A stretch of DNA of 64,000 bases from an uncultured virus (IMG/VR IMGVR_UViG_3300028763_000006) (lineage: Duplodnaviria; Heunggongvirae; Uroviricota; Caudoviricetes): positions 1 through 64,000 of IMG/VR virus record IMGVR_UViG_3300028763_000006. One strand, 5' to 3'. The notes under the pieces are model-generated. The model saw nothing but the letters and a program-made list of their open reading frames with translations, had not been told where the DNA came from and did no database searches. Below, one piece after another: positions 25,915 to 63,850 of this stretch. Both the position numbers and the translations under genes were made by a program. How positions within the stretch are numbered: position 1 is the first letter of the stretch; each line of letters starts with the position of its first letter.

Positions 25915-26193
25915 ATGAGATACATAAAAACATTTGAAGATAAATCAGATAAAATAGAAGTAGGAGACTATGTTATCATTAAAAATAATACAGCATGTCA
26001 TCCGAAATTTAATCATTTTTTTATAAATCCTTGTGAAGTCACATCATTAGATAATTCAGCAATTGATGGACACAACATAAAATTAAAATGTAAAACAGAT
26101 AATATATGGTGGAAGAAAACAGACATCTATTATCATTCAAAAAGAAAAGAAGATGTAGAATCAATTTTAAATACAAGAAAATTCAATTTATGA
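25915..26193 (+). CDS. KFNL-tag family small protein
   Basis: MRYIKTFE...VGDYV...NTRKFNL*. Confidence 0.75.
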   Translation: MRYIKTFEDKSDKIEVGDYVIIKNNTACHPKFNHFFINPCEVTSLDNSAIDGHNIKLKCKTDNIWWKKTDIYYHSKRKEDVESILNTRKFNL

Positions 26194-26203
26194 GAAAAAT
26201 CAT

Positions 26204-26512
26204 ATGAAAAATATTAGATTATATGAAGAATATATAATCACAAACTATGAAGTTGGTGATTACATTTTATTTAAAGATGATTATCTAAAGTTCTGGAAGA
26301 AAAATAAATCTGGAATATCTAATGATGTTTTCAAATTTGCAAAAATAACTGGATTAAACGCAAAAAATGATGATAGATATATTCTTGAAGTAATAGAAGA
26401 TAATGATATAGTTACATATTATTTAGAAGAAAAATATTTTGAAAGAAAATTAACATCAGAAGAAATAGAAGAATTTGAAATAACAAAAAAGTCATTAAAA
26501 TTTAATATATGA
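26204..26512 (+). CDS. KFNL-tag family small protein
   Basis: MKNIRLYEE...VGDYI...KFNI*. Confidence 0.75.
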   Translation: MKNIRLYEEYIITNYEVGDYILFKDDYLKFWKKNKSGISNDVFKFAKITGLNAKNDDRYILEVIEDNDIVTYYLEEKYFERKLTSEEIEEFEITKKSLKFNI

Positions 26513-27111
26513 TAAAAAATTATACACAATACATAAAAGAATCATACAATGAAATACACAGCAACTACGTAATGATAGATGATGATGAAACTGATAAGAT
26601 ATATATCGGAAAGGTAAAATTATCAAACAGAAATAATTTTGTAGATTTATCATATTTTTATTGGTTTGATAAGTCTAAATTAAAATTAGAAAAAATTAGC
26701 GGTACAATTAGATTTAATGATTACACATTAAATATTACATATCAATCTGATAGCTTAAAAAACTGTTTAATTAAAATATCTAACCTATATGACGGCATAC
26801 AAAAATTCAAGACTTATAAAAAATATATCATAGGAGAAAATGATAAATATATAGGATTATACGAAGTTGAATATTCTGAACCATGGATTAAATATATGAA
26901 TAAATATCCAAATGTAAAATTACATTTTTCATATTATCCTGAATCAGAAAGAAAGAAAATATTTGACCATACAAACTCTAAATATGAGAATTCACCAAAA
27001 TCAATAATGAGTTTCAACGTAGATATGAATACAATAAAAGAATTTGATTCATTTGATGACGCATATTCAGTGTTAGAGATAAAGCAAGACGCAAACAAAT
27101 TTAATTTGTAA
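26509..27111 (+). CDS. KFNL-tag family protein
   Basis: MIKNYTQYIKE...DANKFNL*. Confidence 0.75.
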   Translation: MIKNYTQYIKESYNEIHSNYVMIDDDETDKIYIGKVKLSNRNNFVDLSYFYWFDKSKLKLEKISGTIRFNDYTLNITYQSDSLKNCLIKISNLYDGIQKFKTYKKYIIGENDKYIGLYEVEYSEPWIKYMNKYPNVKLHFSYYPESERKKIFDHTNSKYENSPKSIMSFNVDMNTIKEFDSFDDAYSVLEIKQDANKFNL

Positions 27112-27147
27112 ATATATAATTTCGAGTAAAAAAAAAAATTAAAATAT

Positions 27148-27567
27148 ATGATATATTTAAAAAAATTTGAATCAGAAAATATAATGGAAAACGAACAATG
27201 TTTTGTTTTCCTCCAAGGAAATGATGCAAATGAAGAACATTACTATGATTTGGTTCGTGAAAGTAAAAATGACAATTTAATACTTTATCCAGAAAGATCC
27301 ATGACATTTGCTGATACTGTTGATTATAAACGTTATGTTAAATCAGTAGTTACTGAAAATCCATTTATAATATCTTGTTATCCAAGAGAGAATGTATGGA
27401 TATTACAAGATGATGATTGGACTCATCCAGATCAACAAACATATGGAGCTAGTGTAAATCTTATAACATCTTCAATTTTACAATATAGAAACACTATACC
27501 AACTTCTGTGTTAGGCGGTGGTAAATTTAAAGATAAAGTTAAAAAGTTAAAAAATTATAATGATTAA
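27148..27567 (+). CDS. Protein with the N-terminal tag only
   Basis: MIYLKKFESE...; no KFNL end. Confidence 0.65.
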   Translation: MIYLKKFESENIMENEQCFVFLQGNDANEEHYYDLVRESKNDNLILYPERSMTFADTVDYKRYVKSVVTENPFIISCYPRENVWILQDDDWTHPDQQTYGASVNLITSSILQYRNTIPTSVLGGGKFKDKVKKLKNYND

Positions 27568-27585
27568 AAAATTATTACACACATA

Positions 27586-27852
27586 ATGAAATACGTTAAA
27601 AAATACGAAAATTTAAAAAAAGTCACTCCAAATTTCAAAGAAGGAGACTATGTCATTTGCATAGATAGCGAAGACTCAATCTTAACTAAAGACATGATAT
27701 ATTTAGTGAAAAAAATATTAAAAAATGTAAATGGTTATTATGTTTGTAAAGTAAATAGTAAATTAGGAAAAATTGGTGAAAATTTAGGAACATTTTTATG
27801 TGATAGATTTATATCAGAAATTGAATATAATACAAACAAATTTAATTTATAA
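27586..27852 (+). CDS. KFNL-tag family small protein
   Basis: MKYVKKYE...EGDYV...NTNKFNL*. Confidence 0.75.
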   Translation: MKYVKKYENLKKVTPNFKEGDYVICIDSEDSILTKDMIYLVKKILKNVNGYYVCKVNSKLGKIGENLGTFLCDRFISEIEYNTNKFNL

Positions 27853-27855
27853 AAA

Positions 27856-28437
27856 ATGATAAAAAAATATTTACAATACATAACTGAATCAATAACAACC
27901 GATGTTGATGGATTATTGAACAGTATAAATGACACTAAAATAGATTTCTTTAAAATTGGATTATCAAATGATGATTATATAGAAAAAACTATAGATTTTT
28001 TATATGATGATAGTGATTTTAATCAACAATTATTTAAACAGAATCTCAAAAAAGGAGAGATGGAAACTACAATGGAAATTGAGAATTTTTTAAGAAAAGA
28101 CATTGACATGAAATTTTTCTTTCTATATAGTAGAGATGAAACAGTTTTAGATAATCCAAATTATATAATTTTACAATATTACAAAGATGATAAATGGTAC
28201 CCTATTGAAATATATTCAATAAAAGGAAAAGTGGAAGAATTCTACAAAAAACTAACAGCAAAAACTATAAAATTAACTCTTGATAATATTACATATATTT
28301 ATCAAACATCTAATTCTGGTAATAATTGGTTATTAAAAGAACCAGAAAAGAAAACTTCTAAATTCAAAGAAAATATAAATACAGATGATATAAAAACGTT
28401 AATAAAGGGCGGAGCTAAATTAAAAATTATAGACTAA
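27856..28437 (+). CDS. Protein with the N-terminal tag only
   Basis: MIKKYLQYITE... Confidence 0.65.
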   Translation: MIKKYLQYITESITTDVDGLLNSINDTKIDFFKIGLSNDDYIEKTIDFLYDDSDFNQQLFKQNLKKGEMETTMEIENFLRKDIDMKFFFLYSRDETVLDNPNYIILQYYKDDKWYPIEIYSIKGKVEEFYKKLTAKTIKLTLDNITYIYQTSNSGNNWLLKEPEKKTSKFKENINTDDIKTLIKGGAKLKIID

Positions 28438-28800
28438 ATGAAATATTTGAAAACATATGAAAACTTAAATGTTCCTAAAGAATACATTCTTTGTTTACTT
28501 GATCACAAAGATAGATGGGATAGAAATTTCTATCATGAAGGTAAAGAACCTGTATATGTAATATTCAAAGTTTTAAAGCATGAAAAAAATAATAGTAATT
28601 ATTATGATACAGATTTGAAAATAATTTATGAATATCAAGATGAAGATAATTATTGTGATCGTAGATGGGACAAAATAAGAAACGAAGAAAGATTATTTTT
28701 TGAAAGTATAAAAGATAAAATAATCTATCAATCCAACAATTCAAAAGATGTATTAAACAAACTAAATATAATTAGGCAATCAAACAAATTTAATCTATAA
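28438..28800 (+). CDS. KFNL-tag family small protein
   Basis: MKYLKTYE...QSNKFNL*. Confidence 0.75.
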   Translation: MKYLKTYENLNVPKEYILCLLDHKDRWDRNFYHEGKEPVYVIFKVLKHEKNNSNYYDTDLKIIYEYQDEDNYCDRRWDKIRNEERLFFESIKDKIIYQSNNSKDVLNKLNIIRQSNKFNL

Positions 28801-28801
28801 C

Positions 28802-29122
28802 ATGAATCATTTAAAAAAATTTGAGAACATAAATAAAGAAGATATAGATTACAATAAAATTTATTTATATAAGAATAAAGGTGGATATGTAGCAATTGGA
28901 AAAATAAAATTAATCAATAATTGCTACACATTTTATGAATATTATGATAATCATGATACCTTTGAATTTGGAAATCTAATAGTAAAAATAGATTATTCTA
29001 AATATTATGAGGATGATTATATGAGGATGAATTCAGAAGATTTTGATTATTTAAATATTGCACCACAAGATGAAATCAAAAAATACAATTTTGCATTAGA
29101 CTCTAAAAAATTCAATTTATAA
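28802..29122 (+). CDS. KFNL-tag family small protein
   Basis: MNHLKKFE...DSKKFNL*. Confidence 0.75.
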   Translation: MNHLKKFENINKEDIDYNKIYLYKNKGGYVAIGKIKLINNCYTFYEYYDNHDTFEFGNLIVKIDYSKYYEDDYMRMNSEDFDYLNIAPQDEIKKYNFALDSKKFNL

Positions 29123-29123: not shown

Positions 29124-29396
29124 ATGAAACATTTAAAAATATTTGAGACATTTGATGAAGAATATAATATTGGCGATTGTGTAATAGTCATCAGTGAATT
29201 TAATAACATAGATGATGAGCCAATGATAATAATATCTGATAATGATTTTGGTAGTTACACATGTAAGTTTTTAAATCAAGGTAGCCATGACTATCCTGAT
29301 GTTAAAATTTATCCAGATGAGATTACAAGAAAAGCAACATCAGAAGATTTAGAAATATCTAAAATGTCTATAACAACAAGTAAATTCAATTTATGA
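29124..29396 (+). CDS. KFNL-tag family small protein
   Basis: MKHLKIFE...IGDCV...TTSKFNL*. Confidence 0.75.
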   Translation: MKHLKIFETFDEEYNIGDCVIVISEFNNIDDEPMIIISDNDFGSYTCKFLNQGSHDYPDVKIYPDEITRKATSEDLEISKMSITTSKFNL

Positions 29397-30670: not shown

Positions 30671-31003
30671 ATGAAACATTTAAAATACTTTGAAAATAAA
30701 ATAAAAAAATACGAAATTGGAGATTTTGTTATAGGTAAAGTTGATTGGACAGAAACAGACGGTTATACAATTGATGAGATAAATAATTACTTGAGTAATG
30801 AAGCAGGAGAAATAGTAGACATGGAACTAAATGGAATAGATGATGATTTCATAACTCTACGTTATATGAATTTATCACTACCTATGTTTGAGTTTTGTGA
30901 AGATATAATATGTTTTGATACTAATCAAATACTAAGATATGCAACACAGAAGGAAATAGAAATATTTAAAATGAAAGAAAACACAGAAAAATTCAATTTA
31001 TAA
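30671..31003 (+). CDS. KFNL-tag family small protein
   Basis: MKHLKYFE...IGDFV...NTEKFNL*. Confidence 0.75.
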   Translation: MKHLKYFENKIKKYEIGDFVIGKVDWTETDGYTIDEINNYLSNEAGEIVDMELNGIDDDFITLRYMNLSLPMFEFCEDIICFDTNQILRYATQKEIEIFKMKENTEKFNL

Positions 31004-32593: not shown

Positions 32594-32627
32594 AAAAAAA
32601 GCTGAAATTTAAATTTCAGCTTTTTTT
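32594..32627. terminator. Bidirectional terminator
   Basis: AAAAAAAGCTGAAATTTAAATTTCAGCTTTTTTT. Confidence 0.8.
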
Positions 32628-33102
32628 ATAAATTAAATTTAGAAGTGTCTTTATATAGATTAAAATAAGTCAGATTAATATTAGAAATAATGTTATTTAC
32701 ATCATTCTGTTTAATAATACTTGAAAAACTATAATATTCACCATAATCTTCTTTTGGCGACATTATATGTCTTAAAAATGATAGAGTATATGACCATTTA
32801 TCTTCATAAACTTTTTTTACAGATTTACCCCAATGAAAATCTATTTTAATATCAACATTATTAATTATAGTAAAAAGAACATAAAAAATAACATCAAATT
32901 CTGATGTAGGAAAACTACATCTATTAATAGTTATCATATGTTCATAATCTGGAGGTGAATTTGTAGAATAAAATAAATCAGTATCAATAGTTTTTAAAAA
33001 ATCAACAATTTTATCACCTAACTTAATTACTTTATAATGAGAATCAAGATGAGCCACAAATTCTTCAGTATAAACTACATGTTCCTCAAATTTTATAATC
33101 AT
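32626..33102 (-). CDS. KFNL-tag family protein
   Basis: MIIKFEE...DTSKFNL*. Confidence 0.7.
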   Translation of the reverse strand: MIIKFEEHVVYTEEFVAHLDSHYKVIKLGDKIVDFLKTIDTDLFYSTNSPPDYEHMITINRCSFPTSEFDVIFYVLFTIINNVDIKIDFHWGKSVKKVYEDKWSYTLSFLRHIMSPKEDYGEYYSFSSIIKQNDVNNIISNINLTYFNLYKDTSKFNL

Positions 33103-33105
33103 AAA

Positions 33106-33567
33106 TTATATGTTAAATTTTTTAATGTCATTTGAAAGATCATATTCTTTAATTGACAATTTTTTAATTAAATATGGAATATCAGTAATATTTATTGAAC
33201 TATGAAAAGAATAATATTGAAAAGTGTTATCAAAAGGCAATAGTAGTTTTTTAATAAACAGCAAAAAATCTTCACATTTTATCATATCTGTCATCCGACT
33301 GCAGTTTTCTATATCTATTCTAATAGAAGGAGTATATTCTATCCAATCAAATTGTTCATCTTTAATATAAAATGATATACTGAAAATTTCACCAAATGAA
33401 ATATTGTTTTTATAAAAAGTTAATTTATAATATTCATTATCCGCACGCCAACTGGATTGACATTCAATATTCTCACCTTTAATAATATGGTTAAAAATCA
33501 ACAAAAAAGATTTTGCCAATTTTTCAACGTATTTTTTTGAATTATAGCAATTATAATTATACATCAT
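33106..33567 (-). CDS. KFNL-tag family protein
   Basis: Ends DIKKFNI*; resembles the neighbouring ORF (YYSF-x-S-x-I). Confidence 0.7.
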   Translation of the reverse strand: MMYNYNCYNSKKYVEKLAKSFLLIFNHIIKGENIECQSSWRADNEYYKLTFYKNNISFGEIFSISFYIKDEQFDWIEYTPSIRIDIENCSRMTDMIKCEDFLLFIKKLLLPFDNTFQYYSFHSSINITDIPYLIKKLSIKEYDLSNDIKKFNI

Positions 33568-34364
33568 TACAATTTATTTAATTTTTCTTGTGATTTTTTA
33601 ATTGATATCTCAGCAGATTTTATTCTGTCTTGTTTCCAATAAATATGCTGTCTTTTCCAACTATCAACACAACTATCAACATATTCTTTTTGATGTATTT
33701 CCCAACTCTCTTTAGTATAATTTTGCTTTGCATAACAATCATCACTTAATGCATTCCATGTAGTTAACAATAACCGTCCATGTTCTCCTTTTATCAACAA
33801 ATCAATAATTTCATCATCTGTCAATACAATAGATTCTGATATTTCTTTTTCACAAGAAGATATTATATTTTTATCATATTCTATTTCTTTTTGTAATTTT
33901 TCTTTTTTATTTAATTTTTTAATTTTTTCTGAATAAATATTTGTCAATTCAGTATTATTAGTTTGAGGTAAAGTGGTTTTTGTAATATACCTGTAATGAG
34001 CTTTTTGAATATTATAGCCACCTGCAATAATAACTTCGGTTGAGAAATTGTGAATCACTTCATCTCTTTCAATTTTTGCAATAATCTCAAGATTTCCTTT
34101 ATTAGAATAACGTGTGCTTAAATAAATAAGTTTATCTGTTGTCTTTGTGTATTTTTCAATTGATCTTATCATATCAAATACCAAATACAATATAGTATTC
34201 TCCTTTTGAAATTCAGTAAAATATCTACCAGTTTCTTCATAAAAATTTTCTTCATATTTAACCATCAATTTTTCTAAAGTTGGTTCAATTGTAGTAAGAA
34301 TCTTATCAATCAACTCATTCTTAAACTTAATATCCAAAAAGCCTTTATAATTTAGAACACTCAT
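33567..34364 (-). CDS. Hypothetical protein
   Basis: Conserved-looking IIAGGYNIQKAHYRY motif. Confidence 0.6.
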   Translation of the reverse strand: MSVLNYKGFLDIKFKNELIDKILTTIEPTLEKLMVKYEENFYEETGRYFTEFQKENTILYLVFDMIRSIEKYTKTTDKLIYLSTRYSNKGNLEIIAKIERDEVIHNFSTEVIIAGGYNIQKAHYRYITKTTLPQTNNTELTNIYSEKIKKLNKKEKLQKEIEYDKNIISSCEKEISESIVLTDDEIIDLLIKGEHGRLLLTTWNALSDDCYAKQNYTKESWEIHQKEYVDSCVDSWKRQHIYWKQDRIKSAEISIKKSQEKLNKL

Positions 34365-36748: not shown

Positions 36749-37105
36749 ATGAAGTATATTAAAAAATTCGAAGGTTCTAATGAAAAAGGTAAATTTTGGA
36801 AAATAAATACAGATGAGCCATATTTTGAAATATCATTACATAAACTTGGATTTGATGACTCAATAAAGGAGACAATTTACAGTATGAATAACTACCACAT
36901 AAAAAATAGCGGGTTAGTTTATATTTATATAATTGACACAAACACATCATGGATGGGAATATCTGTAACATGGAGTCAAGTTTCAGATTTCAGAAAAGAT
37001 ACTGCAATAGAAAACGGTAATGAGTATATGGGAGAAGTCGATATAACAGAAGAAGATATTAAAAAATGGAAACTAATTAAAACAGCCGAAAAATTTAATT
37101 TATGA
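36749..37105 (+). CDS. KFNL-tag family small protein
   Basis: MKYIKKFE...TAEKFNL*. Confidence 0.75.
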   Translation: MKYIKKFEGSNEKGKFWKINTDEPYFEISLHKLGFDDSIKETIYSMNNYHIKNSGLVYIYIIDTNTSWMGISVTWSQVSDFRKDTAIENGNEYMGEVDITEEDIKKWKLIKTAEKFNL

Positions 37106-37743
37106 AATATCTAAAAGCATTTGAATCAGAAGTATCATCAGGTAATGCATCAGGAAAGGCTGGGGTTGGATCAATTCCATTTGGAAGAGGTTATATGCAA
37201 TCAGGTGGAAACAATGGAGCCAGTGGCATAGTATTCACTGCGGTTGGAGAACCATCTTATACTACATACAAAAGTATGAAGCATTCGAAAAAAGAATTGA
37301 AAGAGAAAAGAAGAAGATTGAAAATGTATAAAAAATTCAAAAAAGATTCTATAATATCAGAGAGAATTGTTGAGATTGATCAAAGTTCATGGAATTGGGG
37401 ATCAGAAACAAATGATGAAAATATAGGCAAATATGTTATAATGAATGAATTTGAAAAAGATGCATTTGCATCTACTAGAGAAAATAAAAAAGAATTAAAT
37501 GATTTTGTTAAAAATAATAGTGGTAAAATAGTAGCATCAAAAAAATCAGGAGTTGGTGTTACTTATATGATAAAGTATAATAATATACCTGAGTATTTAA
37601 AAAAATATTTTGTTAGTTTTAACTTTACAAATGACGCAGAACATAAATATATGAGAGCAATAAAAAGACATAACACAATTGAATTCATAGGATCAAAAGA
37701 AGAATGTGAAATTAAAATATCAACAAAAAAATATAATTTATAA
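37102..37743 (+). CDS. KFNL-tag family protein with Gly-rich and basic segments
   Basis: MKYLKAFE...STKKYNL*. Confidence 0.75.
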   Translation: MKYLKAFESEVSSGNASGKAGVGSIPFGRGYMQSGGNNGASGIVFTAVGEPSYTTYKSMKHSKKELKEKRRRLKMYKKFKKDSIISERIVEIDQSSWNWGSETNDENIGKYVIMNEFEKDAFASTRENKKELNDFVKNNSGKIVASKKSGVGVTYMIKYNNIPEYLKKYFVSFNFTNDAEHKYMRAIKRHNTIEFIGSKEECEIKISTKKYNL

Positions 37744-38186
37744 TGATAATACATTTCAAGGAATTTATAACAGAAGGATTTTTAAATATATTCAATAAAA
37801 AAAAAGAATCTATTGAAAATGATAATGAGAAAATTCTCAGAATGATTTATGATAAAGAGCCAGAACTACAAAAGTATAAATTTGAAGTAGATTCTTGGAA
37901 TAGAAGAGGAGATTTATTACCAAGAGAAAAAAGAAATGATGAAATAATAACCAACCTAAATGGAATTGATGTTATTTTTGATACAGTAACAAAAATTTAC
38001 GAAATTTCTATTGCGCCTAGATACGATTTTGATTTTTCTCTTAGAATACTCAATTTAATTGATGAAAATTATGACACACTTTCTCATAATTTATACAAAT
38101 CTAGTATATCAACAAAATCAATATTATTCACAGAAATGAGTGAAGAAAGAAAATTTGAATTAGACACAAAAAAATATAATCTATAA
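37743..38186 (+). CDS. KFNL-tag family protein
   Basis: MIIHFKEFITE...DTKKYNL*. Confidence 0.75.
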   Translation: MIIHFKEFITEGFLNIFNKKKESIENDNEKILRMIYDKEPELQKYKFEVDSWNRRGDLLPREKRNDEIITNLNGIDVIFDTVTKIYEISIAPRYDFDFSLRILNLIDENYDTLSHNLYKSSISTKSILFTEMSEERKFELDTKKYNL

Positions 38187-38187: not shown

Positions 38188-38580
38188 ATGAAAAAATTTG
38201 ATGAATTTATAAAAGAAGATGCATTTGCAACTATGGGAAACACAGGAGGAATGGGTGCTATTGTAGCTGCTCAACCAGGAAGTATTCCAGGATCTCAAGG
38301 AACTACTGGTTCTGGTGATATTAGTCAGCCTCTTGCTACATATTCTAAACCCGTAGTAAATTTAAAAAGACATAAAAAATCTAAGAAAAATAAAATGAGA
38401 AAAGTAGAATCATTTGATATTTTCATGAAAGAAGAAAATGAGATAATAGACAATTTCACTGCAAGATATTATGATAATTATGATGATGAAGAAGAACCAA
38501 GTTATGAAGTAAATATTCAAGATATTGAAGAAAATAATATTAAAAAAATTCAAATGTACGAAAAAGATGAAAATAAATAA
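38188..38580 (+). CDS. N-tagged Gly-rich/basic/acidic protein
   Basis: MKKFDEFIKE...GNTGGMG...KRHKKSKKNK. Confidence 0.65.
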   Translation: MKKFDEFIKEDAFATMGNTGGMGAIVAAQPGSIPGSQGTTGSGDISQPLATYSKPVVNLKRHKKSKKNKMRKVESFDIFMKEENEIIDNFTARYYDNYDDEEEPSYEVNIQDIEENNIKKIQMYEKDENK

Positions 38581-38863
38581 ATTTAGCCAACTAAATGAAT
38601 CTAATGAAATACCATATAATAAATCATTAGGATATGATATGTCAATGATAGATTATCTAGCCAAAAGTTTTCAATTATGGACAGATGCATAAGATTTATC
38701 ACCAAAATCCGCTGATGAATATAGCATAGATGAATTAACAGATGTTCAGTATGATTATATAAAAAAATTCATAATTTTATGGGATTCAACTGAAGAATTT
38801 GAGAGAGATTATAATATAAATGGAATTAAATTAGAACAAAAAGCAAAAAAATTTAATATATAA
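38567..38863 (+). pseudogene. KFNL-tag family gene interrupted by an in-frame TAA (not in ORF track)
   Basis: MKINKFSQLNE...WTDA*DLSPK...QKAKKFNI*; stop at 38690-38692. Confidence 0.7.
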
Positions 38864-39460: not shown

Positions 39461-40468
39461 ATGGACTATAAAAAGGATTATTATAAAGAATTAGGATTAA
39501 ATAAAGATTCATCTGAGGAAGAAATAAAAAAGAAATATCGAAAGCTTGCAATAAAATATCATCCTGACAAAAATCAAGGAGATAAAGAAAGCGAGGAAAA
39601 ATTCAAATCAGTATCAGAAGCTTACGAAGTATTATCTGATAATTCAAAAAAACAAGAATATGACACGCGTAGTCCAAATGGAAATTCATTTTCACAATTT
39701 GGTGGGCAAGAATCAAGTTTTTTTGGAGGAGGCATGAATTCTAGTTTTTTCAATCAATTCTTTGGTGGAAATAGTCCATTTGGAAATTTTTCCGGTAAAG
39801 AAGAATTTTCTGAAAACTTAGACATAAACATAAATGTAGATATAGATTTTAAACAGATATATAAAAATGATAAAATTAAAGTAAAATACAACAAATTAAT
39901 TAGTTGTGATGACTGCAAAGGTACTGGATTTGATAAATCTGGACATTCAGATGATTGTGATGTATGTGATGGTACAGGAATAAATAATGGAAGAGATTGT
40001 GAGTACTGTCAAGGTACTGGAAAAATTCATAGTGATAAATGCAAAAAATGTAATGGGGAAAAAGTAATATTAAAAGAAACTGAAATAGAATTACAAAACA
40101 TATCGGAAATTAGATCCTCCAATAGAAATTTGCAATATGGTTATGGTAGTCAATCAAAATACTATAAAGATAGAGTAGGAAGCTTAATTTTAAATATAAA
40201 TATTATAAATAGAAGTAAATGCAGCATAATAAATAATTATGATTTAATTTCAGAATTAGATATACATTTTCAAGATGCCATTGATGGAAGCAAAATATAT
40301 TATACTCATGTTGATGATACTAAATTAGAAATTAAATTACCTAATAAAACCAAGGACAAAGATACAATAAAAATAAAAGAAAAAGGTTTATTAAGACAGA
40401 ATGGCAAAAGAGCAGATTTATATCTGAAATTAAATATTGTCATAGACTATGACAAATTAAATATATAA
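39461..40468 (+). CDS. dnaJ: DnaJ chaperone
   Basis: J domain with HPD, G/F region, four CxxCxG(xG) motifs, C-terminal domain. Confidence 0.92.
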
Positions 40469-42255: not shown

Positions 42256-42567
42256 CTAATTGAATATTTTTTTCAATTTCTTTTTTCTTAGCATTTTTAT
42301 TCCACCAATAATCTCTACATTATCAAACTTAAATTCTTCACGTTCATTTTTTTTAGAAACATACAAAGTACTATACATTACTAACAAAAAGTATTGTTCT
42401 TTGAAAAGTGGATGGTCTTTTTTTATTTTATTTTTCAATTGAAATGTTTTCAATTGAAATAAATATGTAATAAAAGCATCACTTTTTGAAGATAACTCAA
42501 TAGGATTTTTATTTTTTATATGAAAATCAATATCCTTAATGAAATCATATAATTGATAATTTGACAT
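42256..42567 (-). CDS. Small protein, RKxKL family
   Basis: Ends LRKKKLKKIFN. Confidence 0.55.
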   Translation of the reverse strand: MSNYQLYDFIKDIDFHIKNKNPIELSSKSDAFITYLFQLKTFQLKNKIKKDHPLFKEQYFLLVMYSTLYVSKKNEREEFKFDNVEIIGGIKMLRKKKLKKIFN

Positions 42568-44595: not shown

Positions 44596-46941
44596 TTAGG
44601 CTATTGCATCTACTATCGTGGTTGCATCAAATACTAATTTATTAACTCCTGTTGAACTAACAAATAAAATTTTTGTGTATGTAAGATAAACATAAGTTGA
44701 TATTGTAAAATTAGAATGTGAAAAATTATTATTAACCTGATTTGACTGAAAATTACTACCAATAACATTAAACATAAAGTTACATCCGATATTATTTCCA
44801 GTAAAATTATTTCCAACAGTATTTTGTGTATATTCATTTCCTATTATATTAACACTAAAATCACTTCCGATTACATTAGTAACAAAATTGTCTTCTATTG
44901 AGTTAGCTTGAAAATTCGAAATAATGTTATTATTACTGAAATTGGTTCCAATTCTATTACCTGCAAAATTGTCACCTGATATGATATTAATTTGAAATCT
45001 ATCACCAACAATATTAGACGTAAAATTATTATCTATAGTATTCTGATAAAATCCATTACCAATATCATTTGAATCAAATCCAGATTTAATATTATTCTGA
45101 TAAAATCCATTTTTAATTGAATTAGAATTAAAAAGATTTGTGATTATATTATATCGAAAATTATACCCAATAATATTAATTTTAAAATTGTCACCAATTT
45201 TATTATATTGAAAATTATCACAAACAATATTATTAATAAAATTAATACCAATAATATTATGATGATGCAGATTATTCATTATATTATATTGAAAATTAGA
45301 CTTAATAATATTGTTAAAAAATTGAATTTTAATATTATTATACATAAATGTTGCTCCAATTGAATTAGTATAAAAAGAATATTTTATCACATTAAGTACA
45401 AAATTCTTTGAAATTATATTTTTTGAAAAATTTTGTCCAATTGAATTTTGACTAAATCCATAACCAATTGAATTACCTTCATTAATATTTCCGTTATAAT
45501 AACCAAAATAATTACCAATTGAATTATTATTAAAATTGGATCCAATTGAGTTGTGCATAAACCCACTTCCAATTGAGTTATTATAAAAACTTTCACCAAT
45601 TGAGTTATTAGTAAAATTAAATCCTATCGTGTTACCATAAAATATATTTCCAAAAATAACACTAGTACAATTATTAAGAATATTATTATATCCATTATAA
45701 GATCCTATATGATTATTATAAATATTACTAGTATATGACACAAACATAGCATAGTCTGAATATAATGTTGTACAAGGTATATTTGAGTTTATGTTATTAT
45801 AATTAATTGCAGTTGTACTCACATAACTTAAATTATTCCATTCAAATAATTTCCAAACATTGTCATTATCAGAAGATGGATTAATTCCAGTCACTCCACT
45901 ATTTAAACAAACATAAATAGTTACTCCACTATATAAAACTACATCATTATTGTTATATGTAGTTGAAGGATCCCAAATATTAGTAACATTTATTTGCCAT
46001 CTACGAAACTTAACATTTCTAAAATCAAAAGGAATATTATTATTCTGAAGAGTATCAATTCTTCTATAAATATAACCCTTTGTACAACCAGGTACAATTG
46101 CTTGATCACTTACTGAATTATAATAAATTATATCTTTAGGATATAAAACTGAATAAGCTTCAGGTTTTAATGTGTTTGAGCTACTTGCAGTTACTAATAA
46201 AGGTTCTGTTATTCCACTATTGATATCAGAAGTACCTACAATAGTATGAACTGTCTGATAATCTGTAATCGAATAAGTTCTATTAATATTTAATCCATTA
46301 GAAAGGATCAAAGCTCTCAAATCTGCATATAATATATTAGTGACACCTGATGTAGTATTTATTCCATTTATTCCATTTATTCCATTTATTCCTGATGTTC
46401 CATTTGTACCACTCGCACCTGATGATCCATTAGTTCCATTTGATCCATTAGTTCCATTTATACCTGATGTACCAGTTTGACCATTTATACCTGATGTACC
46501 AGTTTGACCATTTATACCTGATGTACCTGATGACCCAGCTGGTCCAATTGGAATATTAGTATATGACAGCACTCCATCAACATCTGAAACTAATATTTTA
46601 CCTACTCCATATCCAGGAGATAAACAAGTAATACCAGATTCAATATTTATATTTTTAGTGTGTAGAGTATCAGTATCTGAGTCAAAATATAAAGTATCAG
46701 TTGTTGTACCAGAATCTTCAAAAAAATACATTTGTTTTATTGTATTTTCTCCTACTCTCATCCACACATTTTCATCCGTTTCATTAAGAAAAAACTCTCC
46801 GATATAAATATCAGTTGTTCTCCATGATGGTAGCAATGTATGATCATCATGTGATCCTCCCAACGCTGGAATTGTTGCAACATCACCAGAAACAGTATTT
46901 CGTTTTACAATAACTCTACTATATTTTTCAACTTTAGACAT
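44596..46941 (-). CDS. Putative tail fibre/spike: collagen-like G-x-x repeat plus C-terminal 11-aa beta-helix repeats (start reassigned to MSKVEK)
   Basis: GSSGTSGINGQTGTSGING... triplets; many N-x-I-G-x-x-F-x-x-N units; IGEFFLNETD..VW N-terminal fibre motif. Confidence 0.7.
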   Translation of the reverse strand: MSKVEKYSRVIVKRNTVSGDVATIPALGGSHDDHTLLPSWRTTDIYIGEFFLNETDENVWMRVGENTIKQMYFFEDSGTTTDTLYFDSDTDTLHTKNINIESGITCLSPGYGVGKILVSDVDGVLSYTNIPIGPAGSSGTSGINGQTGTSGINGQTGTSGINGTNGSNGTNGSSGASGTNGTSGINGINGINGINTTSGVTNILYADLRALILSNGLNINRTYSITDYQTVHTIVGTSDINSGITEPLLVTASSSNTLKPEAYSVLYPKDIIYYNSVSDQAIVPGCTKGYIYRRIDTLQNNNIPFDFRNVKFRRWQINVTNIWDPSTTYNNNDVVLYSGVTIYVCLNSGVTGINPSSDNDNVWKLFEWNNLSYVSTTAINYNNINSNIPCTTLYSDYAMFVSYTSNIYNNHIGSYNGYNNILNNCTSVIFGNIFYGNTIGFNFTNNSIGESFYNNSIGSGFMHNSIGSNFNNNSIGNYFGYYNGNINEGNSIGYGFSQNSIGQNFSKNIISKNFVLNVIKYSFYTNSIGATFMYNNIKIQFFNNIIKSNFQYNIMNNLHHHNIIGINFINNIVCDNFQYNKIGDNFKINIIGYNFRYNIITNLFNSNSIKNGFYQNNIKSGFDSNDIGNGFYQNTIDNNFTSNIVGDRFQINIISGDNFAGNRIGTNFSNNNIISNFQANSIEDNFVTNVIGSDFSVNIIGNEYTQNTVGNNFTGNNIGCNFMFNVIGSNFQSNQVNNNFSHSNFTISTYVYLTYTKILFVSSTGVNKLVFDATTIVDAIA
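46454..46528. repeat. 27-bp tandem repeat in the collagen-like segment
   Basis: CCATTTATACCTGATGTACCAGTTTGA x2 plus a partial third copy. Confidence 0.85.
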
Positions 46942-49172: not shown

Positions 49173-49451
49173 TTGTATATATTAAAAATAAATAAGGTAA
49201 TTATGAAAGTCATAAAAAAAGGTAGCATTGTAACTCAGGATAAAAATTTTTTTTATTATTGGACATGTCCAAAATTTAAATTAGAAGTAATTAAAATTGA
49301 TGGACGAATAGCTTATTTTAAATATGACATTATAATGAAAAATTCAAATAATATAATGCAATCAACTAAAAGCATAAACATTGATTATATAAAAATAGAC
49401 ATATCAGAAACAAGAAAACAAAAATTATTAAAAATAAATGAGCGAATTTGA
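49173..49451 (+). CDS. Small protein, RKxKL family (start probably MKVIKK)
   Basis: Ends TRKQKLLKINERI. Confidence 0.55.
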   Translation: MYILKINKVIMKVIKKGSIVTQDKNFFYYWTCPKFKLEVIKIDGRIAYFKYDIIMKNSNNIMQSTKSINIDYIKIDISETRKQKLLKINERI

Positions 49452-49770
49452 TGAAATAAATTCCTTAAAAGAAGGAACAGAAAAAATAGATAAACTAATA
49501 AATTTCTATAAAGTAACGGTAAAAATTAATGAATGGTTAAATGGGACAAATAAAAATTCTATTATACACTTCAAAGATAGAATTGAATATAAAAGAAATA
49601 ATCAATATCATAGACTAAATGGACCTGCTATTGATTATGAGAATGAAGACAAAAATAAATATTACTATAAGGGAATATTATACAATTCAAAAGATGAATG
49701 GTCGAAGATTACACAAAAAGAAGTAAGAAAAACAAAACTAAAAAGAATAAAAAAAGAAAGTTCAGAATAA
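49438..49770 (+). CDS. HRxxGPA-motif protein, RKxKL family
   Basis: YHRLNGPAI...YYYKG; ends VRKTKLKRIKKESSE. Confidence 0.65.
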   Translation: MSEFDEINSLKEGTEKIDKLINFYKVTVKINEWLNGTNKNSIIHFKDRIEYKRNNQYHRLNGPAIDYENEDKNKYYYKGILYNSKDEWSKITQKEVRKTKLKRIKKESSE

Positions 49771-51230: not shown

Positions 51231-52133
51231 CTAATCAAATTTTTTCTTCAATTTTATATCTATATTACTCAAATATCCAGTTTTTATATGAACGTCATTT
51301 TCATCATCATCAATAATATCATCAGTATCATATTCAAAATCAAAAATAAATAAGTCATAATCTTCTCTTTCTTTTGGTAATTTATCAAAATCATTATTCT
51401 TACTCAAATACATATCATCATAATTCCAACCAACTACCAATTTATCTAATTCTTTATTTTTAATATTTAGTGGTTGATTATCTTCTATCATACCAGAATA
51501 TTTAGATGATTTATCTTTTTTGTATCCTCTCCAATATAAACAATAACCATGATTTATTTTTTTAATCGGATAATTAATAATACTATTAATCCATTCATCA
51601 TCCTTTATAATTTTAAATCCATCTTGAACATATATTTCTCCAAATAGTTCTTTTATTTTAGGTATGAATTTTTTAAGAAATTCAGGAATTGTCAATCTAA
51701 CTCCATTATAATATCCACCATCACTATCAAACCATCCAGAGTCTTTCAATCTTTCTATTTTTGATTTAATTATTATAAATTTTTTAGTATACTTACTAAT
51801 ATTTTTTATTTTTTGAGTTTTTATCAATTCTTCATTTTCGTGAAACCATATTCGTTTTCTTGATCCATAACTTCCTACTTCAATTGAAGGGAATGCAAAA
51901 GGAGAAATCTTATAATTATCACTTATTTTATCTCCATCTAATTCTAACTTAAATAAGGTAACAGGAGAATCACCAACATAATGATTCATACTTTTATTTC
52001 TTGTAGTTGAAATATTTGTAAATTTATAAGATGATATTGAATTTGTATTTAATATATATTCACACTTACTCAAATCAAATATATGATATAAACTACCCAA
52101 TTGCTTACCTTCATAACATTTTAAATACTTCAT
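51231..52133 (-). CDS. N-tagged protein, possible ADP-ribosyltransferase fold
   Basis: MKYLKCYE start; LYH...ISTTR...ENEE (H/R-S-ExE-like triad). Confidence 0.45.
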   Translation of the reverse strand: MKYLKCYEGKQLGSLYHIFDLSKCEYILNTNSISSYKFTNISTTRNKSMNHYVGDSPVTLFKLELDGDKISDNYKISPFAFPSIEVGSYGSRKRIWFHENEELIKTQKIKNISKYTKKFIIIKSKIERLKDSGWFDSDGGYYNGVRLTIPEFLKKFIPKIKELFGEIYVQDGFKIIKDDEWINSIINYPIKKINHGYCLYWRGYKKDKSSKYSGMIEDNQPLNIKNKELDKLVVGWNYDDMYLSKNNDFDKLPKEREDYDLFIFDFEYDTDDIIDDDENDVHIKTGYLSNIDIKLKKKFD

Positions 52134-52155: not shown

Positions 52156-52581
52156 TTAAATATTGAATTTGCCTGCTATTGAATATAACTCAATATCAGA
52201 TTCTTTCAAATTACGAATAATTTCAATCGCATCATTATAATATTTAACATCAAATGTAACAGAAAAATAATCCCAATAATTATCAATATGAGATTTATAT
52301 GGCTCAATTATAATATTATTTTCTATCAATTTATTTATAATTAAATCTGAAATAAATTCTATTTTAGGATCAAAATCATATGCAGTGAAACCTATACAAA
52401 TTTTATTTTTATTTTTATTAATACTTATATAATTTTGATTTTTTTTATAATCATTACCTTCAAATTTAATTTCATTTTTTGATATGAAACAAGAAAAGTT
52501 ATTATTTAATTTAAGACGCAAAGTATTTAATAATTCTGCTGAAAAAAATTTACTTTCGAATATTTTAAAATTTTTAATCAT
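52156..52581 (-). CDS. KFNL-tag family protein (start reassigned)
   Basis: MIKNFKIFE...IAGKFNI*. Confidence 0.7.
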   Translation of the reverse strand: MIKNFKIFESKFFSAELLNTLRLKLNNNFSCFISKNEIKFEGNDYKKNQNYISINKNKNKICIGFTAYDFDPKIEFISDLIINKLIENNIIIEPYKSHIDNYWDYFSVTFDVKYYNDAIEIIRNLKESDIELYSIAGKFNI

Positions 52582-52591
52582 ATTTTTCTTT

Positions 52592-52945
52592 TTATTCGTA
52601 AATTGATTGTCCATGTTTATCATTATGTAAATCATGAATAGCAACAAAGTAATCACCACTAATATACAATGAATCCAATTTTATATACATATTAAAAATT
52701 ACAGGAGTTTTAGATCCTGTCATCAAACTATATCTTCTGGCAATATCTATATCAGGAGAAAACCAAGTTCCATTTTTAAATTTACCTGTTCTTATTATTT
52801 TTTTTGAATTCTCTCTATTTGTACCATGATACAATAAAATATATACATCACCGTCGATATACATTTTTTCAATTCCTCTATCAGTAACATTTTTTAAGTA
52901 TTCATCTGACAAATGATTCTCATATATTTTAAATTCTATTATCAT
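52592..52945 (-). CDS. N-tagged protein, possible ART/PARP-like fold
   Basis: MIIEFKIYE start; LYHGT...II..G..GTWFSPD...ARRY. Confidence 0.45.
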   Translation of the reverse strand: MIIEFKIYENHLSDEYLKNVTDRGIEKMYIDGDVYILLYHGTNRENSKKIIRTGKFKNGTWFSPDIDIARRYSLMTGSKTPVIFNMYIKLDSLYISGDYFVAIHDLHNDKHGQSIYE

Positions 52946-60303: not shown

Positions 60304-60651
60304 ATGAAGCACTTAAGATTATTTGAGAATGAGTTATCGTATAAATATAAAGTAGGTGATTATGTATTAATTAACTATGATACTAAATCTAAAACATTAT
60401 CAAAGTTGAAGGATTTTGTAAATATTCATATAGGAAAAATACTGTTTATTGACGATAAAAGTTTAATTATTCAATATAATAATCCACCAGATAAATTGAA
60501 TCATTTTTTTTCTGATAAAGTAGTAGGCAATAAAAATATTAAAAATTCTGTGTTTTTTTGGAATAAAATAAATACAATAAGAAGATTGGCAACAGAAGAT
60601 GAAATATCAGAATATGAAGTAGTTAAAAATACAAATAAATTTAATATATGA
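60304..60651 (+). CDS. KFNL-tag family small protein
   Basis: MKHLRLFE...YKVGDYV...NTNKFNI*. Confidence 0.75.
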   Translation: MKHLRLFENELSYKYKVGDYVLINYDTKSKTLSKLKDFVNIHIGKILFIDDKSLIIQYNNPPDKLNHFFSDKVVGNKNIKNSVFFWNKINTIRRLATEDEISEYEVVKNTNKFNI

Positions 60652-61246: not shown

Positions 61247-61247
61247 C

Positions 61248-61278
61248 AAAAAAACTCAGATTAAATCTGAGTTTTTTT
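61248..61278. terminator. Bidirectional terminator
   Basis: AAAAAAACTCAGA-TTAAA-TCTGAGTTTTTTT. Confidence 0.8.
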
Positions 61279-61751: not shown

Positions 61752-61769
61752 GCCTTTTATATTTTTTTT

Positions 61770-62114
61770 TTATATATTAAATTTATTAGTTGATATTAAT
61801 AAATCCAAATCATCTCTTGTTATTATTGACCAATTATCCTTATTATTCCAATCATAATCTGGATATTTGTCTAATATATAATCTAATCTACGCTCTGCTT
61901 GTTTTGTTGTAAAAAAACAAGCTGTGTTATTAATATTATAAATTGTATTTGAATTAAATTTATTAATATCAATAGAAGATATTACATCACTAGATTCATA
62001 TGGAAGATTCATCAATATCAATTTATCACCTTTAGTTGGTCTATTCAAAATTAATAAATATTTTTGTTTATTTTCTTCTTTCTTTTTAAATATGTTAAAT
62101 TTTTCTACTATCAT
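61770..62114 (-). CDS. KFNL-tag family protein (paralogue of 62117..62455)
   Basis: MIVEKFNIFK...STNKFNI*. Confidence 0.75.
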   Translation of the reverse strand: MIVEKFNIFKKKEENKQKYLLILNRPTKGDKLILMNLPYESSDVISSIDINKFNSNTIYNINNTACFFTTKQAERRLDYILDKYPDYDWNNKDNWSIITRDDLDLLISTNKFNI

Positions 62115-62116
62115 AA

Positions 62117-62455
62117 TTATAAATTAAATTTATTTGTAGTGAATAAAAAATTCAACTCGTCAAAAGTTTTTATCATCCAATTATTTCTATTAGTCCATTG
62201 AGAATCACTATATTTATGTAGTATATTATCTAATCTATCATTGGCTAATTCAATTGTAGGAAAACTTTCAATATTATTATTTTTCCCTTTTAGAATATTT
62301 ATATTACTTGAATTTATTTCATCAGTAGTAATAAAATCCTCAATTCCGTGAGTAAGTTTATATAATATAGAATAATCTCCTTCATTTGGTCTGTGTAAAA
62401 TCAAGAAATATTTTTCTTCTTTGTTTTTAAATATATTAAATCTTTCTATTATCAC
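62117..62455 (-). CDS. KFNL-tag family protein
   Basis: MIIERFNIFK...TTNKFNL*. Confidence 0.75.
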   Translation of the reverse strand: MIIERFNIFKNKEEKYFLILHRPNEGDYSILYKLTHGIEDFITTDEINSSNINILKGKNNNIESFPTIELANDRLDNILHKYSDSQWTNRNNWMIKTFDELNFLFTTNKFNL

Positions 62456-62470
62456 ATTCTAATATTATTT

Positions 62471-62902
62471 TTATAAATTAAATTTCATAGTAGATTTTAT
62501 CCATGTTGGAGTATAATTTACCGCATTTAGAAATAAATAGAATGAAAAAATGAAATATGAACTCTTCCAATCCATTGATGTTTTATTCGTATATTCTTCT
62601 ATTTCATAATATAATTTAGGAGTATTTTCTATTTTTGTTATTATAGAATTTAATGTATATTTTTTTATTTCTCTTTGAGTTTTTTTATCTTTCTTTTTAT
62701 CCTCTGTTTTCCAGACATCAGGATGTTTATACATAAATATTAGCATAGAAAATTCATCATAACAAGAAATTGGTATATTTCTATATGTGTAATTATCAGT
62801 TATTTTTTCACCATATTTATTCTTATATATTTTTTCATAATTATTTATAAAAATTTCAGTATCAGAGCTAATTTTTATGACTATATTATTTTTTTCTATC
62901 AT
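62471..62902 (-). CDS. KFNL-tag family protein (no clear N-tag)
   Basis: Ends STMKFNL*. Confidence 0.7.
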   Translation of the reverse strand: MIEKNNIVIKISSDTEIFINNYEKIYKNKYGEKITDNYTYRNIPISCYDEFSMLIFMYKHPDVWKTEDKKKDKKTQREIKKYTLNSIITKIENTPKLYYEIEEYTNKTSMDWKSSYFIFSFYLFLNAVNYTPTWIKSTMKFNL

Positions 62903-62993
62903 ATTAAATTTGTTTATAAGTACAATTTACAAAATTATAAAAAATACTCACAAAATATTAATAAATTGCATATTATTATATTTTTTTATATTA

Positions 62994-63431
62994 TTACAAG
63001 TTAAATTTGTTCGCATTTCTTATTAAATTCAATTCTTCAATAATAATTTTTTGTTTTTCTGTTATATTTCCATAAATAGTAAATGGTGAATTGACATTAA
63101 TTCTATATTCAATATTAGGATAATTTTTTAATATTAATGATAATATCACAAATTCTTTTTCTTTGTGTTGTAGTGTTCCTTTATATCCAACAGTACATTC
63201 ATGAACTTTATCAATAATACCTGTACATCCTTCTACAATTGGTATGAATTCAAATAAACTATTATCATAACCATAATTAAAATTAAATTTAACTACTTTA
63301 CCAGGAGCTAACAAATCTGTAATAAATTTTTTTATTTTATTCTGGTTTCCATTATAATAAATCATCAAATCATTTAAAATTAATGTTGTTTCATTTTCTA
63401 CATTCTCAAATACTTTAAAATTTGTTATCAT
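62994..63431 (-). CDS. KFNL-tag family protein
   Basis: MITNFKVFE...NANKFNL*. Confidence 0.75.
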   Translation of the reverse strand: MITNFKVFENVENETTLILNDLMIYYNGNQNKIKKFITDLLAPGKVVKFNFNYGYDNSLFEFIPIVEGCTGIIDKVHECTVGYKGTLQHKEKEFVILSLILKNYPNIEYRINVNSPFTIYGNITEKQKIIIEELNLIRNANKFNL

Positions 63432-63850
63432 ATATTAAATTTTTTTGCTTCTCTTTTTATATTTATATCATTAACAATTTTTTTAATTTCATCAGGAACA
63501 TAGCCATAAATAGTAGTTGGAGAATTTGTGTCTACATCATGATCATATTTTATTCTTTTTAATATTATTGTTAAATATATATAATGAAATTCATTACTAA
63601 ATCCATATGATCTACCTCGTATTACACCTTTGTGATGTTTATTTGAATGCATAAAATTGGTTACTCCATTAATCATCATGGTACATTTTTTACAATCAAA
63701 TTCAACTATATTGTTATCATTATAATCAAGTAATTTAAATATGAAATTTCTTATTGAGTCATCATCACCATCGAAATAATCTATTACGTCATTTAAAATT
63801 ATTGTAATCTTATCTTCTGAGTTCTCAAATATTTTGAATTCTGTTATCAT
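63428..63850 (-). CDS. KFNL-tag family protein (start reassigned; paralogue of 62994..63431)
   Basis: MITEFKIFE...EAKKFNI*. Confidence 0.75.
   Translation of the reverse strand: MITEFKIFENSEDKITIILNDVIDYFDGDDDSIRNFIFKLLDYNDNNIVEFDCKKCTMMINGVTNFMHSNKHHKGVIRGRSYGFSNEFHYIYLTIILKRIKYDHDVDTNSPTTIYGYVPDEIKKIVNDINIKREAKKFNI

Follow-up and report, generated by a model that had tools for sequence, protein, structure and literature searches.

Why should so many small proteins of one phage, diverse in their cores, end in the same four residues? We investigated this question in a window of 64,000 nucleotides (the whole stretch of DNA analysed), which is the initial part of a virus record of 119,069 bp (24% G+C). 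An earlier note on this DNA had pointed to 22 open reading frames (ORFs) whose products end in K-[FY]-N-[LI] directly before the stop codon, and had proposed that this C-terminal tag is an address label read in trans by a single partner. We found that the recurrent K[FY]N[LI]-stop tag is very likely real and that, as read from the sequences, it is one half of an apparent two-ended signature, whose N-terminal half was absent from the earlier note. Tentatively, we read this signature as a label for loading cargo into the phage head.

Counting ORFs of at least 40 aa that end in K[FY]N[LI]-stop, we recovered 21 intact ORFs at exactly the left coordinates listed before; the 22nd, given as '38567, interrupted', proved to be a broken remnant. 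Six-frame translation finds the stop-terminated motif 25 times in the window, namely at the 21 ORF ends, in the remnant and at three places in frames without an ORF; about 3.9 would be expected from the motif frequency multiplied by the stop frequency. The whole 119-kb record has 26 tagged ORFs among 184 (greedy ORF calling gave 25 of 183; the ORF at 62117-62455, lost to the overlap rule, was restored), and its proteins contain K[FY]N[LI] internally at 5 per 36,650 residue positions. The tagged ORFs of the window, with the neighbours that share their features, are:

25915..26193, plus strand: tagged ORF, 92 aa, MRYIKTFE...TRKFNL, SH3-like family
26204..26512, plus strand: tagged ORF, 102 aa, MKNIRLYE...SLKFNI
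26509..27111, plus strand: tagged ORF, 200 aa, MIKNYTQYIKE...ANKFNL, I-x-E-type N-terminus
27148..27567, plus strand: ORF with the N-terminal motif only and no C-terminal tag, 139 aa, MIYLKKFE...
27586..27852, plus strand: tagged ORF, 88 aa, MKYVKKYE...TNKFNL
28438..28800, plus strand: tagged ORF, 120 aa, MKYLKTYE...SNKFNL
28802..29122, plus strand: tagged ORF, 106 aa, MNHLKKFE...SKKFNL
29124..29396, plus strand: tagged ORF, 90 aa, MKHLKIFE...TSKFNL
30671..31003, plus strand: tagged ORF, 110 aa, MKHLKYFE...TEKFNL, followed by a hairpin and T-run
32626..33102, minus strand: tagged ORF, 158 aa, MIIKFEEH...TSKFNL, followed by a hairpin and T-run
33106..33567, minus strand: tagged ORF, 153 aa, ...IKKFNI, without a clear N-terminal motif
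36749..37105, plus strand: tagged ORF, 118 aa, MKYIKKFE...AEKFNL
37102..37743, plus strand: tagged ORF, 213 aa, MKYLKAFE...TKKYNL
37743..38186, plus strand: tagged ORF, 147 aa, MIIHFKEF...TKKYNL
38188..38580, plus strand: ORF starting MKKFDEFIKE (the T4 MKTYQEFIAE pattern), whose frame ends untagged
38513..38863, plus strand: broken remnant ...KAKKFNI-stop (stop end 38849-38863), open from 38513, with an in-frame TAA at 38690
51231..52133, minus strand: ORF with the N-terminal motif only, 300 aa, MKYLKCYE..., upstream of tail-fibre-like genes on the same strand
52156..52635, minus strand: tagged ORF, ...AGKFNI, whose likely true start gives MIKNFKIFE
60304..60651, plus strand: tagged ORF, 115 aa, MKHLRLFE...TNKFNI, modelled as an SH3-like barrel with a C-terminal helix
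60648..60989, plus strand: tagged ORF, 113 aa, MKHLKLYE...TKKFNI
61770..62114, minus strand: tagged ORF, 114 aa, MIVEKFNIF...TNKFNI
62117..62455, minus strand: tagged ORF, 112 aa, paralog of the ORF at 61770 (core identity 43%)
62471..62902, minus strand: tagged ORF, 143 aa, ...TMKFNL, without the N-terminal motif
62994..63431, minus strand: tagged ORF, 145 aa, MITNFKVFE...ANKFNL
63428..63877, minus strand: tagged ORF, MITEFKIFE...AKKFNI, ATG start at 63850, paralog of the ORF at 62994

The stretch 38188-38863 is a tagged gene broken by a frame change and the in-frame TAA (38690). Its N-terminal part (MKKFDEFIKE...) and its C-terminal part (...KAKKFNI) are both recognisable, and the ORF at 38188-38580 and the remnant at 38513-38863 lie in different frames.

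The record is contained in a 235,318-bp IMG/VR contig, G001 (100% identity at the protein used to find it), and ends at G001 position 143,562. CheckV completeness of 33% suggests a full genome of about 0.7 Mb for G001. In this contig and in G003, a 168-kb relative, the tag is carried by 10-19% of ORFs. A comparison with a null had been named as a check on the tag, and it came out strongly in favour: 38 of 397 ORFs are tagged in G001 and 75 of 401 in G003, while residue shuffles averaged 0.089 and 0.095 tagged ORFs per genome and never exceeded 2 in 2000 rounds. Within proteins K[FY]N[LI] is uncommon, with 12 sites per 71,139 residues in G001 and 11 per 51,176 in G003. We also counted a degenerate DNA pattern for the tag on both strands, with the reversed pattern as control. 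The tag was in excess in G001 (50 vs 9), G003 (88 vs 12), G004 (119 vs 18), G005 (68 vs 10) and G006 (89 vs 13); the excess was small in G007 (30 vs 14) and LR756502 (18 vs 8) and absent in LR756501 (15 vs 16), Lak-A2 (19 vs 16) and LR756508 (3 vs 6). Since only some records show it, the tag is a trait of one subclade and not a by-product of A+T-rich composition. The earlier suggestion that such a tag is undescribed agrees with the literature: in the main texts covered, neither four spellings of the tag nor papers on huge and jumbo phages led to a description of it.

Most tagged proteins also begin alike, with M-K-[HY]-[LI]-K-x-[FY]-E or with shifted variants such as MITKFKIFE, MIIKFEEH and MKKYDQFINE. 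Under strict regular expressions, 66 ORFs of G003 have both ends, 8 the N-terminal motif (N-motif) only, 13 the C-terminal tag (C-tag) only and 314 neither (Fisher p = 7e-53); the corresponding numbers for G001 are 21, 15, 19 and 342 (p = 8e-15). The tag is therefore not the stand-alone terminal signal first supposed, being statistically tied to the N-motif. Many of the ORFs scored as having the C-tag only carry shifted variants of the N-motif. When G001 ORFs were scored with a position matrix trained on G003 N-termini, 18 of the 38 tagged ones reached 6 bits or more, against 14 of the 359 untagged ones. The N-motif also occurs without the C-tag: in the source record it is found on an NT5C-like nucleotidase and an AAA protein, and LR756502 has 16 strict N-motif ORFs (0 with the reversed control), none of which ends in the C-tag and none of which matched a Pfam family. 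The AAA protein encoded at G001 153819-155255 starts with an N-motif variant, MKTLKNYD.

Conservation of the C-tag acts on the protein. Over the 38 tagged G001 ORFs the aromatic residue is encoded by TTT 24 times, TTC 9 times and TAT 5 times, and the asparagine by AAT 31 and AAC 7 times; the last residue is ATA in 17, TTA in 11, CTA in 4, TTG in 3 and ATT in 3, and the stops are TAA in 24 and TGA in 14. Synonymous variation, remarked on before and now counted, is thus present at every tag position, at rates like or above the genome's own. Furthermore, 33 of the 113 tagged genes in G001 and G003 have no closely following (coupled) gene on the same strand, and in the window the tag also ends genes that abut terminators, at 30671-31003 and 32626-33102. 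The synonymous codons and the uncoupled genes together place the constraint at the protein level, as the earlier note had held, and we consider K[FY]N[LI] to be, with good probability, a protein-level terminal label.

The four residues are the end of a longer conserved element. Information content climbs across the last 17 residues to a total of about 26 bits, and an acidic amphipathic helix (-17 to -9) leads into [DN]-[TSA]-[NK]-K-[FY]-N-[LI]. Both the acidic helix and the small residue at -6 (T, S or A in 34 of 38 G001 tags) had been described from the window. A single example bears on position: P0020 (243 aa) is a natural fusion of two SH3-like units in which the tag at the internal junction (...IDASKLQVNIISKKLKHLKLYE...) has decayed and the terminal KYNL is intact, which argues that the extreme C-terminal position matters. 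We modelled two members with AlphaFold2. The SH3-like ORF at 60304-60651 (mean pLDDT 77.5) forms a small barrel and a helix at 98-110, with tails of low confidence (residues 1-12 below 50; the last block of five averaging 48), and an ankyrin member at 114382-114813 of the record (mean pLDDT 95.9) consists of ankyrin repeats and a C-terminal helix at 126-141, whose last turn takes in the tag's K and F; the final three-residue block has an average of 64. A Foldseek search of the PDB with the SH3-like model returned nothing at E <= 0.001, the best matches being eL21-like barrels at E ~0.01.

A second recurrent C-terminal motif is found on other small proteins. It is a basic helix, R-K-x-K-L-x-K-[IL] (for example ...LRKDKLKKIYK, ...ERKEKIKKINNI and ...LRKKKLKKIFN), at 20026-20358, 20355-20555, 22323-22688, 42256-42567, 49203-49451 and 49438-49770 of the window, at G001 167768-168377 and in several G003 ORFs, and may mark another family or another label.

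To see what the two ends enclose, we trimmed 12 residues from the start and 20 from the end of each of the 113 tagged proteins in G001 and G003. The resulting cores gave 76 BLASTP clusters, and profile iteration gathered 30 into an SH3-like family and 13 into an ankyrin family, leaving 70 without a family and no overlap between groups. Judged by sequence similarity, they do not appear to be the one ordinary paralogous family that would have explained the shared ends. The earlier description of the cores as largely unrelated holds for the 70 without a family and for the several folds seen, but about a quarter (30 of 113) belong to the single SH3-like family. By Pfam, 11 of the 75 tagged G003 proteins and one protein of the source record have ankyrin repeats; there was also one LRR_4 match right at the cut-off (and hence weak) and one DUF4240 match. 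The recognisable cores thus look like binder modules: SH3-like barrels, ankyrin repeats and one weak LRR match. Against 1.84 billion proteins, the SH3-like profile retrieved 2,649 representatives (50% identity) at E <= 0.001; among the best 150 of these, 142 have the strict tag and 8 near variants, and 135 the strict N-motif. The tagged proteins are soluble and mildly acidic (median pI 5.4-5.8), their genes stand in tandem runs of up to 11, and the set is fast-evolving. The array at G001 217172-222409 (L014:3172-8406) contrasts with this set: it is an ordinary paralog array of 12 tandem genes for proteins of 132-168 aa with a common N-terminus, M-x-K-E-E-L-S-x-W-F-x-x-K-F-N-x-C-Y-P-V, and varied C-termini.

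Megablast of 20 kb of the window against named phages gave no match, nor did tblastn of one tagged protein against named phages at E <= 0.1; in PHROGs, 26 of 27 tagged or neighbouring proteins had no family and the other a weak match of unknown function; all tagged ORFs of the window were below the Pfam cut-offs; and the ESM Atlas returned only viral 'hypothetical protein' clusters.

What could a label common to so many binders do? We propose that the N-motif would direct the protein to the core of the prohead, much as the capsid-targeting sequence does in T4, and that there the free C-terminal peptide would dock on one common head-assembly partner (the inner shell, the scaffold/protease or the portal), in a manner resembling encapsulin cargo peptides on an HK97-fold shell. 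This two-ended loading of cargo into the head, with T4-like targeting at one end and a second docking peptide at the other, we put a little short of an even chance. From it we infer delivery: the tagged set would enter the next host with the DNA as a ready-made arsenal. That a hundred or more binder proteins are loaded into one giant head and injected together as a pre-made anti-host arsenal seems to us doubtful.

The analogy with T4 starts from its internal proteins, of which IPII and IPIII begin MKTYQEFIAE and IPI begins MKTFKEF. In one review, propeptides of 10-19 residues send T4 internal proteins, which are basic, to the prohead core, with targeting residues at positions 4 and 7 and processing residues at 8 and 10 (PMC9026906); in another, T-even internal proteins are highly diverse and conserve only the targeting sequence (PMC3012670). 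The main N-motif has L/I at 4, F/Y at 7 and E at 8 after its M-K start, and agrees with the T4 targeting positions as a pattern, not as a demonstrated function. A subset has I at 8 and E at 10 (MKKYDQFINE, MKSFDQYINE, MKKFDEFIKE), and a candidate for the T4 processing site, (L/I)-x-E at residues 8-10 and cut by the gp21-type protease, is found in a subset that includes MIKNYTQYIKE; the main variant, with E at 8, has L/I at P3 in some members only. As with IPI, IPII, IPIII and Alt, we see small diverse proteins with only a short terminal peptide in common and M-K-x-hydrophobic-x-x-F at the start, in a phage whose relatives have T4-type portal, protease and capsid genes. Unlike T4, the phages studied here add a strictly C-terminal tag, place E at 8 instead of the (L/I)-x-E site, and carry dozens to about a hundred such genes per contig instead of three or four, for proteins that are acidic.

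Two other systems offer parallels for the C-terminal end. In encapsulins, a short C-terminal peptide of unrelated cargo proteins docks inside an HK97-fold shell; similarly, one short C-terminal peptide is found here on SH3-like, ankyrin, weak LRR_4 and DUF4240 cores and on 70 of 113 other cores. The peptide sequences are unlike, and encapsulins are not phage heads. Viral ankyrin proteins (poxvirus ANK/PRANC and ASB/SOCS-box proteins) likewise combine variable repeat binders with one conserved C-terminal module. PRANC and SOCS-box modules are folded domains of 40-50 residues that bind parts of ubiquitin ligases, whereas the invariant part here is four residues on the end of a helix, in a bacterial virus.

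The head genes of relatives give the reading its genomic context. Profile searches found Gp23 above the cut-off in 4 of 10 records, Peptidase_S77 at E <= 0.01 in 4 of 10 (above the cut-off in 2), and a Portal_T4 match in LR756502 at E = 1.3e-57. LR756502 also encodes a homolog of the T4 head-completion protein gp4, with a TnsA-like nuclease fold (L196:5909-6433; BLASTP E = 1e-15). Among capsid-gene loci of the LR756501 type, 9 of 68 contain an ORF with the strict tag. The one in L295 encodes a 543-aa endonuclease-like protein and is probably a chance match; in the other eight the tagged ORF is small and lies inside the head cluster, with cores that differ by locus. It stands between the portal and protease genes in six (L318, L319, L320, L324, L335 and L344), the interval occupied in T4 by the core genes 67 and 68; it adjoins the portal gene in L337, and L341 has two tagged ORFs beside the gp4-like gene. 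The start is of the N-motif type in seven of the eight loci, the L319 ORF being truncated by the contig end. Together with the T4-like N-motif, these small genes in T4-type head clusters lend circumstantial support to the capsid interior or portal as the reader, one of the options first listed. A reader acting in trans is also in keeping with the terminal position of the tag, the different folds that carry it and its strictness in the best SH3-like representatives.

Head regions of the LR756502 type hold other conserved ends, which we observed separately. In the LR756502 protease-scaffold (L196:11272-13371) a prohead protease is joined to a scaffold-like part in which roughly twelve SEYIAEN repeats (I-A-E sites) can be read by eye; of 73 related loci (L197-L276), 53 retain the C-terminus ERFKN[ILV], which may be a conserved docking tail of the protease-scaffold itself. 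The gp4-like protein of LR756502-type phages ends ...HLK[KR]FN[LVI] (35 of 80 related loci). We considered the KKFN[LVI] and ERFKN[ILV] ends as evidence for the tag and rejected them; in the tagged head-cluster loci the corresponding ends are KKYGIIK (or similar) and FDKLSS. Large endonuclease-like ORFs (520-545 aa) interrupt head clusters of relatives.

Promoter elements, read by eye, bear on when the tagged genes are expressed. Most tagged arrays lie 3' of a TTTTTATATATA-type upstream element that is also found 5' of baseplate and fibre-like genes; a T-run followed by TATATATA precedes the baseplate genes, the fibre-like genes and most tagged arrays (25915, 36749, 63428, 99825, 115439). A TAnnTTTG-type element, which matches the Bacteroidetes promoter consensus, precedes ClpS, ClpP, ligase, an SbcCD-like gene and others, as well as the gene at 33567-34364, which heads the two tagged genes at 32626-33567. 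These positions suggest that the tagged arrays are not immediate-early genes. Both elements recur across the window, TAnnTTTG upstream of 2868, 33567 (minus strand) and 41789 (minus strand), and TATATATA upstream of 11675, 25915, 36749, 42573 (minus strand) and 46998 (minus strand). In divergent gaps the T-run with TATATATA is often palindromic, and the palindromic element may serve both directions.

Several results weigh against loading into the head. The TATATATA-type element also precedes the Dam, DeoC, NUDIX and DnaJ genes, and because these are enzyme genes late expression of the tagged arrays is not proven. The main N-motif is without the T4 (L/I)-x-E processing site, the tagged proteins are acidic where the T4 internal proteins are basic, and a cargo set of a tenth to a fifth of all ORFs would be very large. 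T4 gp67 and gp68 have no motif in common with the tagged proteins. All N-motif ORFs of LR756502 are tagless, and one end can thus exist without the other. Portal_T4 and gp4-like genes were found in 0 of 12 tag-clade contigs, including the window's own (all fragments, 5-70% complete), and Gp23 and S77 in 0 of 6, again all fragments, bar a stray Gp23 match in G004 (E = 0.002, in a 99-aa frame). In the contigs covered, the tag-rich arrays and the head clusters stand on different molecules and may or may not belong to the same phages.

An AAA+ protease would give the C-terminal tail another role, as a docking peptide by which binder adaptors serve a phage ClpC-ClpP or as a degron that marks proteins for timed destruction; the earlier note had listed an AAA ATPase or a protease among possible readers. 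The source record does encode ClpS, an 844-aa ClpA/C-type unfoldase (Clp_N, IGF loop), ClpP, DnaJ and peptide deformylase. ClpS, a 92-aa unknown protein, the unfoldase and a 107-aa unknown protein form a gene run, with ClpP, DnaJ and peptide deformylase elsewhere in the record; the coordinates of this proteostasis set are L001:6201-9641 (record 69201-72641), L003:6828-7580 (record 105897-106649) and window 39461-40468. The N-degron pocket of the phage ClpS retains its N-D-D and H residues. Extreme C-terminal peptides are the usual currency of AAA+ proteases; ssrA and SspB XB sequences are C-terminal docking tails of such systems, which have in common with the tag an extreme C-terminus with a free carboxylate, and E. 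coli HslU ends RFIL, a [KR]-F-x-L form like the tag. A binder domain joined to a conserved C-terminal module is, moreover, the layout of a substrate receptor. Among relatives, however, the distribution of the Clp genes does not follow that of the tag. LR756501 combines a Clp_N unfoldase with no tag excess, G007 encodes ClpS as well as Clp_N but has few tags, and four tag-rich contigs (168-330 kb, fragments) are without ClpS or Clp_N; LR756502 has ClpS and an unfoldase without the N-domain. Of 10 records, 3 have ClpS and 3 have Clp_N, in neither case in relation to the tag excess. The coupled N-motif is also left unexplained, and we consider a protease reader unlikely; this option of the earlier note is not supported.

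Other candidate readers fared no better. The ending fits a PDZ class II ligand (F/Y at -3, L/I at -1), but PDZ_2 (PF13180 only) was found in 0 of 5 tag-rich contigs, with 14 of 14 controls detected. The Proteasome family, for an HslV-type reader, was likewise found in 0 of 5 and had no match in the Bacteroides thetaiotaomicron control either. Outside the tagged set, G001 and G003 share only 14 weak pairs of homologs, not enough to screen for a tag reader by presence and absence.

The shared ends could instead be an ordinary feature of paralog families, structural or oligomerisation elements kept by descent and not read by a partner of their own. The 30 SH3-like and 13 ankyrin members among the 113, the near-universal strict tag in the best SH3-like representatives, the tandem arrays and the placement of the tag K and F in the last turn of a confident helix in the ankyrin model all point this way. 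Descent within a family does not readily account for the same ends on an SH3-like barrel, ankyrin repeats, weak LRR_4, DUF4240 and 70 other cores, nor for the low-confidence tails of the SH3-like model, the decayed internal tag of P0020, or an N-motif that stands without the tag in LR756502 (16 of 16 ORFs) and on the nucleotidase and AAA protein. We give this explanation a low probability, similar to that of a protease reader.

It is quite improbable, in our view, that the tail docks on a hub protein of a Bacteroidota host and tethers many binders to one host site. The abundance of the tag in one subclade would fit host-specific adaptation, and promoters of the presumed host type (TAnnTTTG) are present; Bacteroidetes are the hosts that Al-Shayeb et al. 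2020 (PMC7162821) predicted for the largest genomes of the Mahaphage clade. Against this, no partner candidate emerged, most arrays follow the phage-type upstream element and not the host-type one expected for immediate host takeover, and relatives have tagged genes inside head clusters.

Finally, conservation at the nucleic acid level, as a junction hairpin, a translational-coupling element or a recombination site across the stop and next start, is barely credible: many junctions do read ...AAATTTAATATATGAAATATATT..., the reverse complement of K-F-N-I codons does read Y-I-K-F and stops and starts do overlap as ATGA in arrays, but this idea is largely refuted by the synonymous variation, the 33 of 113 uncoupled tags, the three off-frame window sites that end no ORF and the lack of co-variation between the last residue (I, L) and residues 3-4 of the next gene (YI 16, 10; YL 3, 7; HI 3, 6; HL 4, 4).

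If the signature is a loading signal, it would provide a simple sequence rule to pick out the injected protein arsenal of uncultured megaphages, a catalogue in which candidate anti-defence or host-control binders would number in the thousands (2,649 representatives in the SH3-like family alone) and a short portable tag with which foreign proteins could be packed into phage heads. Should the arsenal exist, it would parallel, in phages, the effector repertoires of secretion systems, and its C-terminal loading peptide would be an analogue of encapsulin cargo tags. Whatever the partner, a four-residue C-terminal peptide on 10-19% of ORFs and on unrelated folds points to a single hub on which these phages depend.

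Apart from the tagged genes, the window encodes phage functions. A baseplate hub that includes an M23 peptidase is encoded at 17181-19025 and a collagen-like fibre protein at 44596-46941; there are also genes for ribonucleotide reductase, a RecA-like protein and a DnaB-like helicase. This helicase shares 57% identity with its counterpart in the 735-kb LR756501, less with those of the 635-642-kb records, and 32% with those of Lak phages. Al-Shayeb et al. 2020 (PMC7162821) assign the Lak phages, along with genomes larger than 634 kb, to the 'Mahaphage' clade, to which, by helicase similarity, the window phage is related. Among the public runs listed, 24 contain part of the tagged-array region; all are labelled peat metagenomes, and 12 of them contain at least half of the sampled words.

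Two further protein groups were observed. MoxR-like AAA proteins and DUF2201 proteins (metallopeptidase plus VWA-like), several in number, are encoded at 2868-4139 of the window, L009:5210-6835 and L010:8736-13255. DUF7487 proteins are encoded at 349-1155 of the window (minus strand; 268 aa, ending ...ETQFNI) and at L196:10714-11097 in the LR756502 head region.

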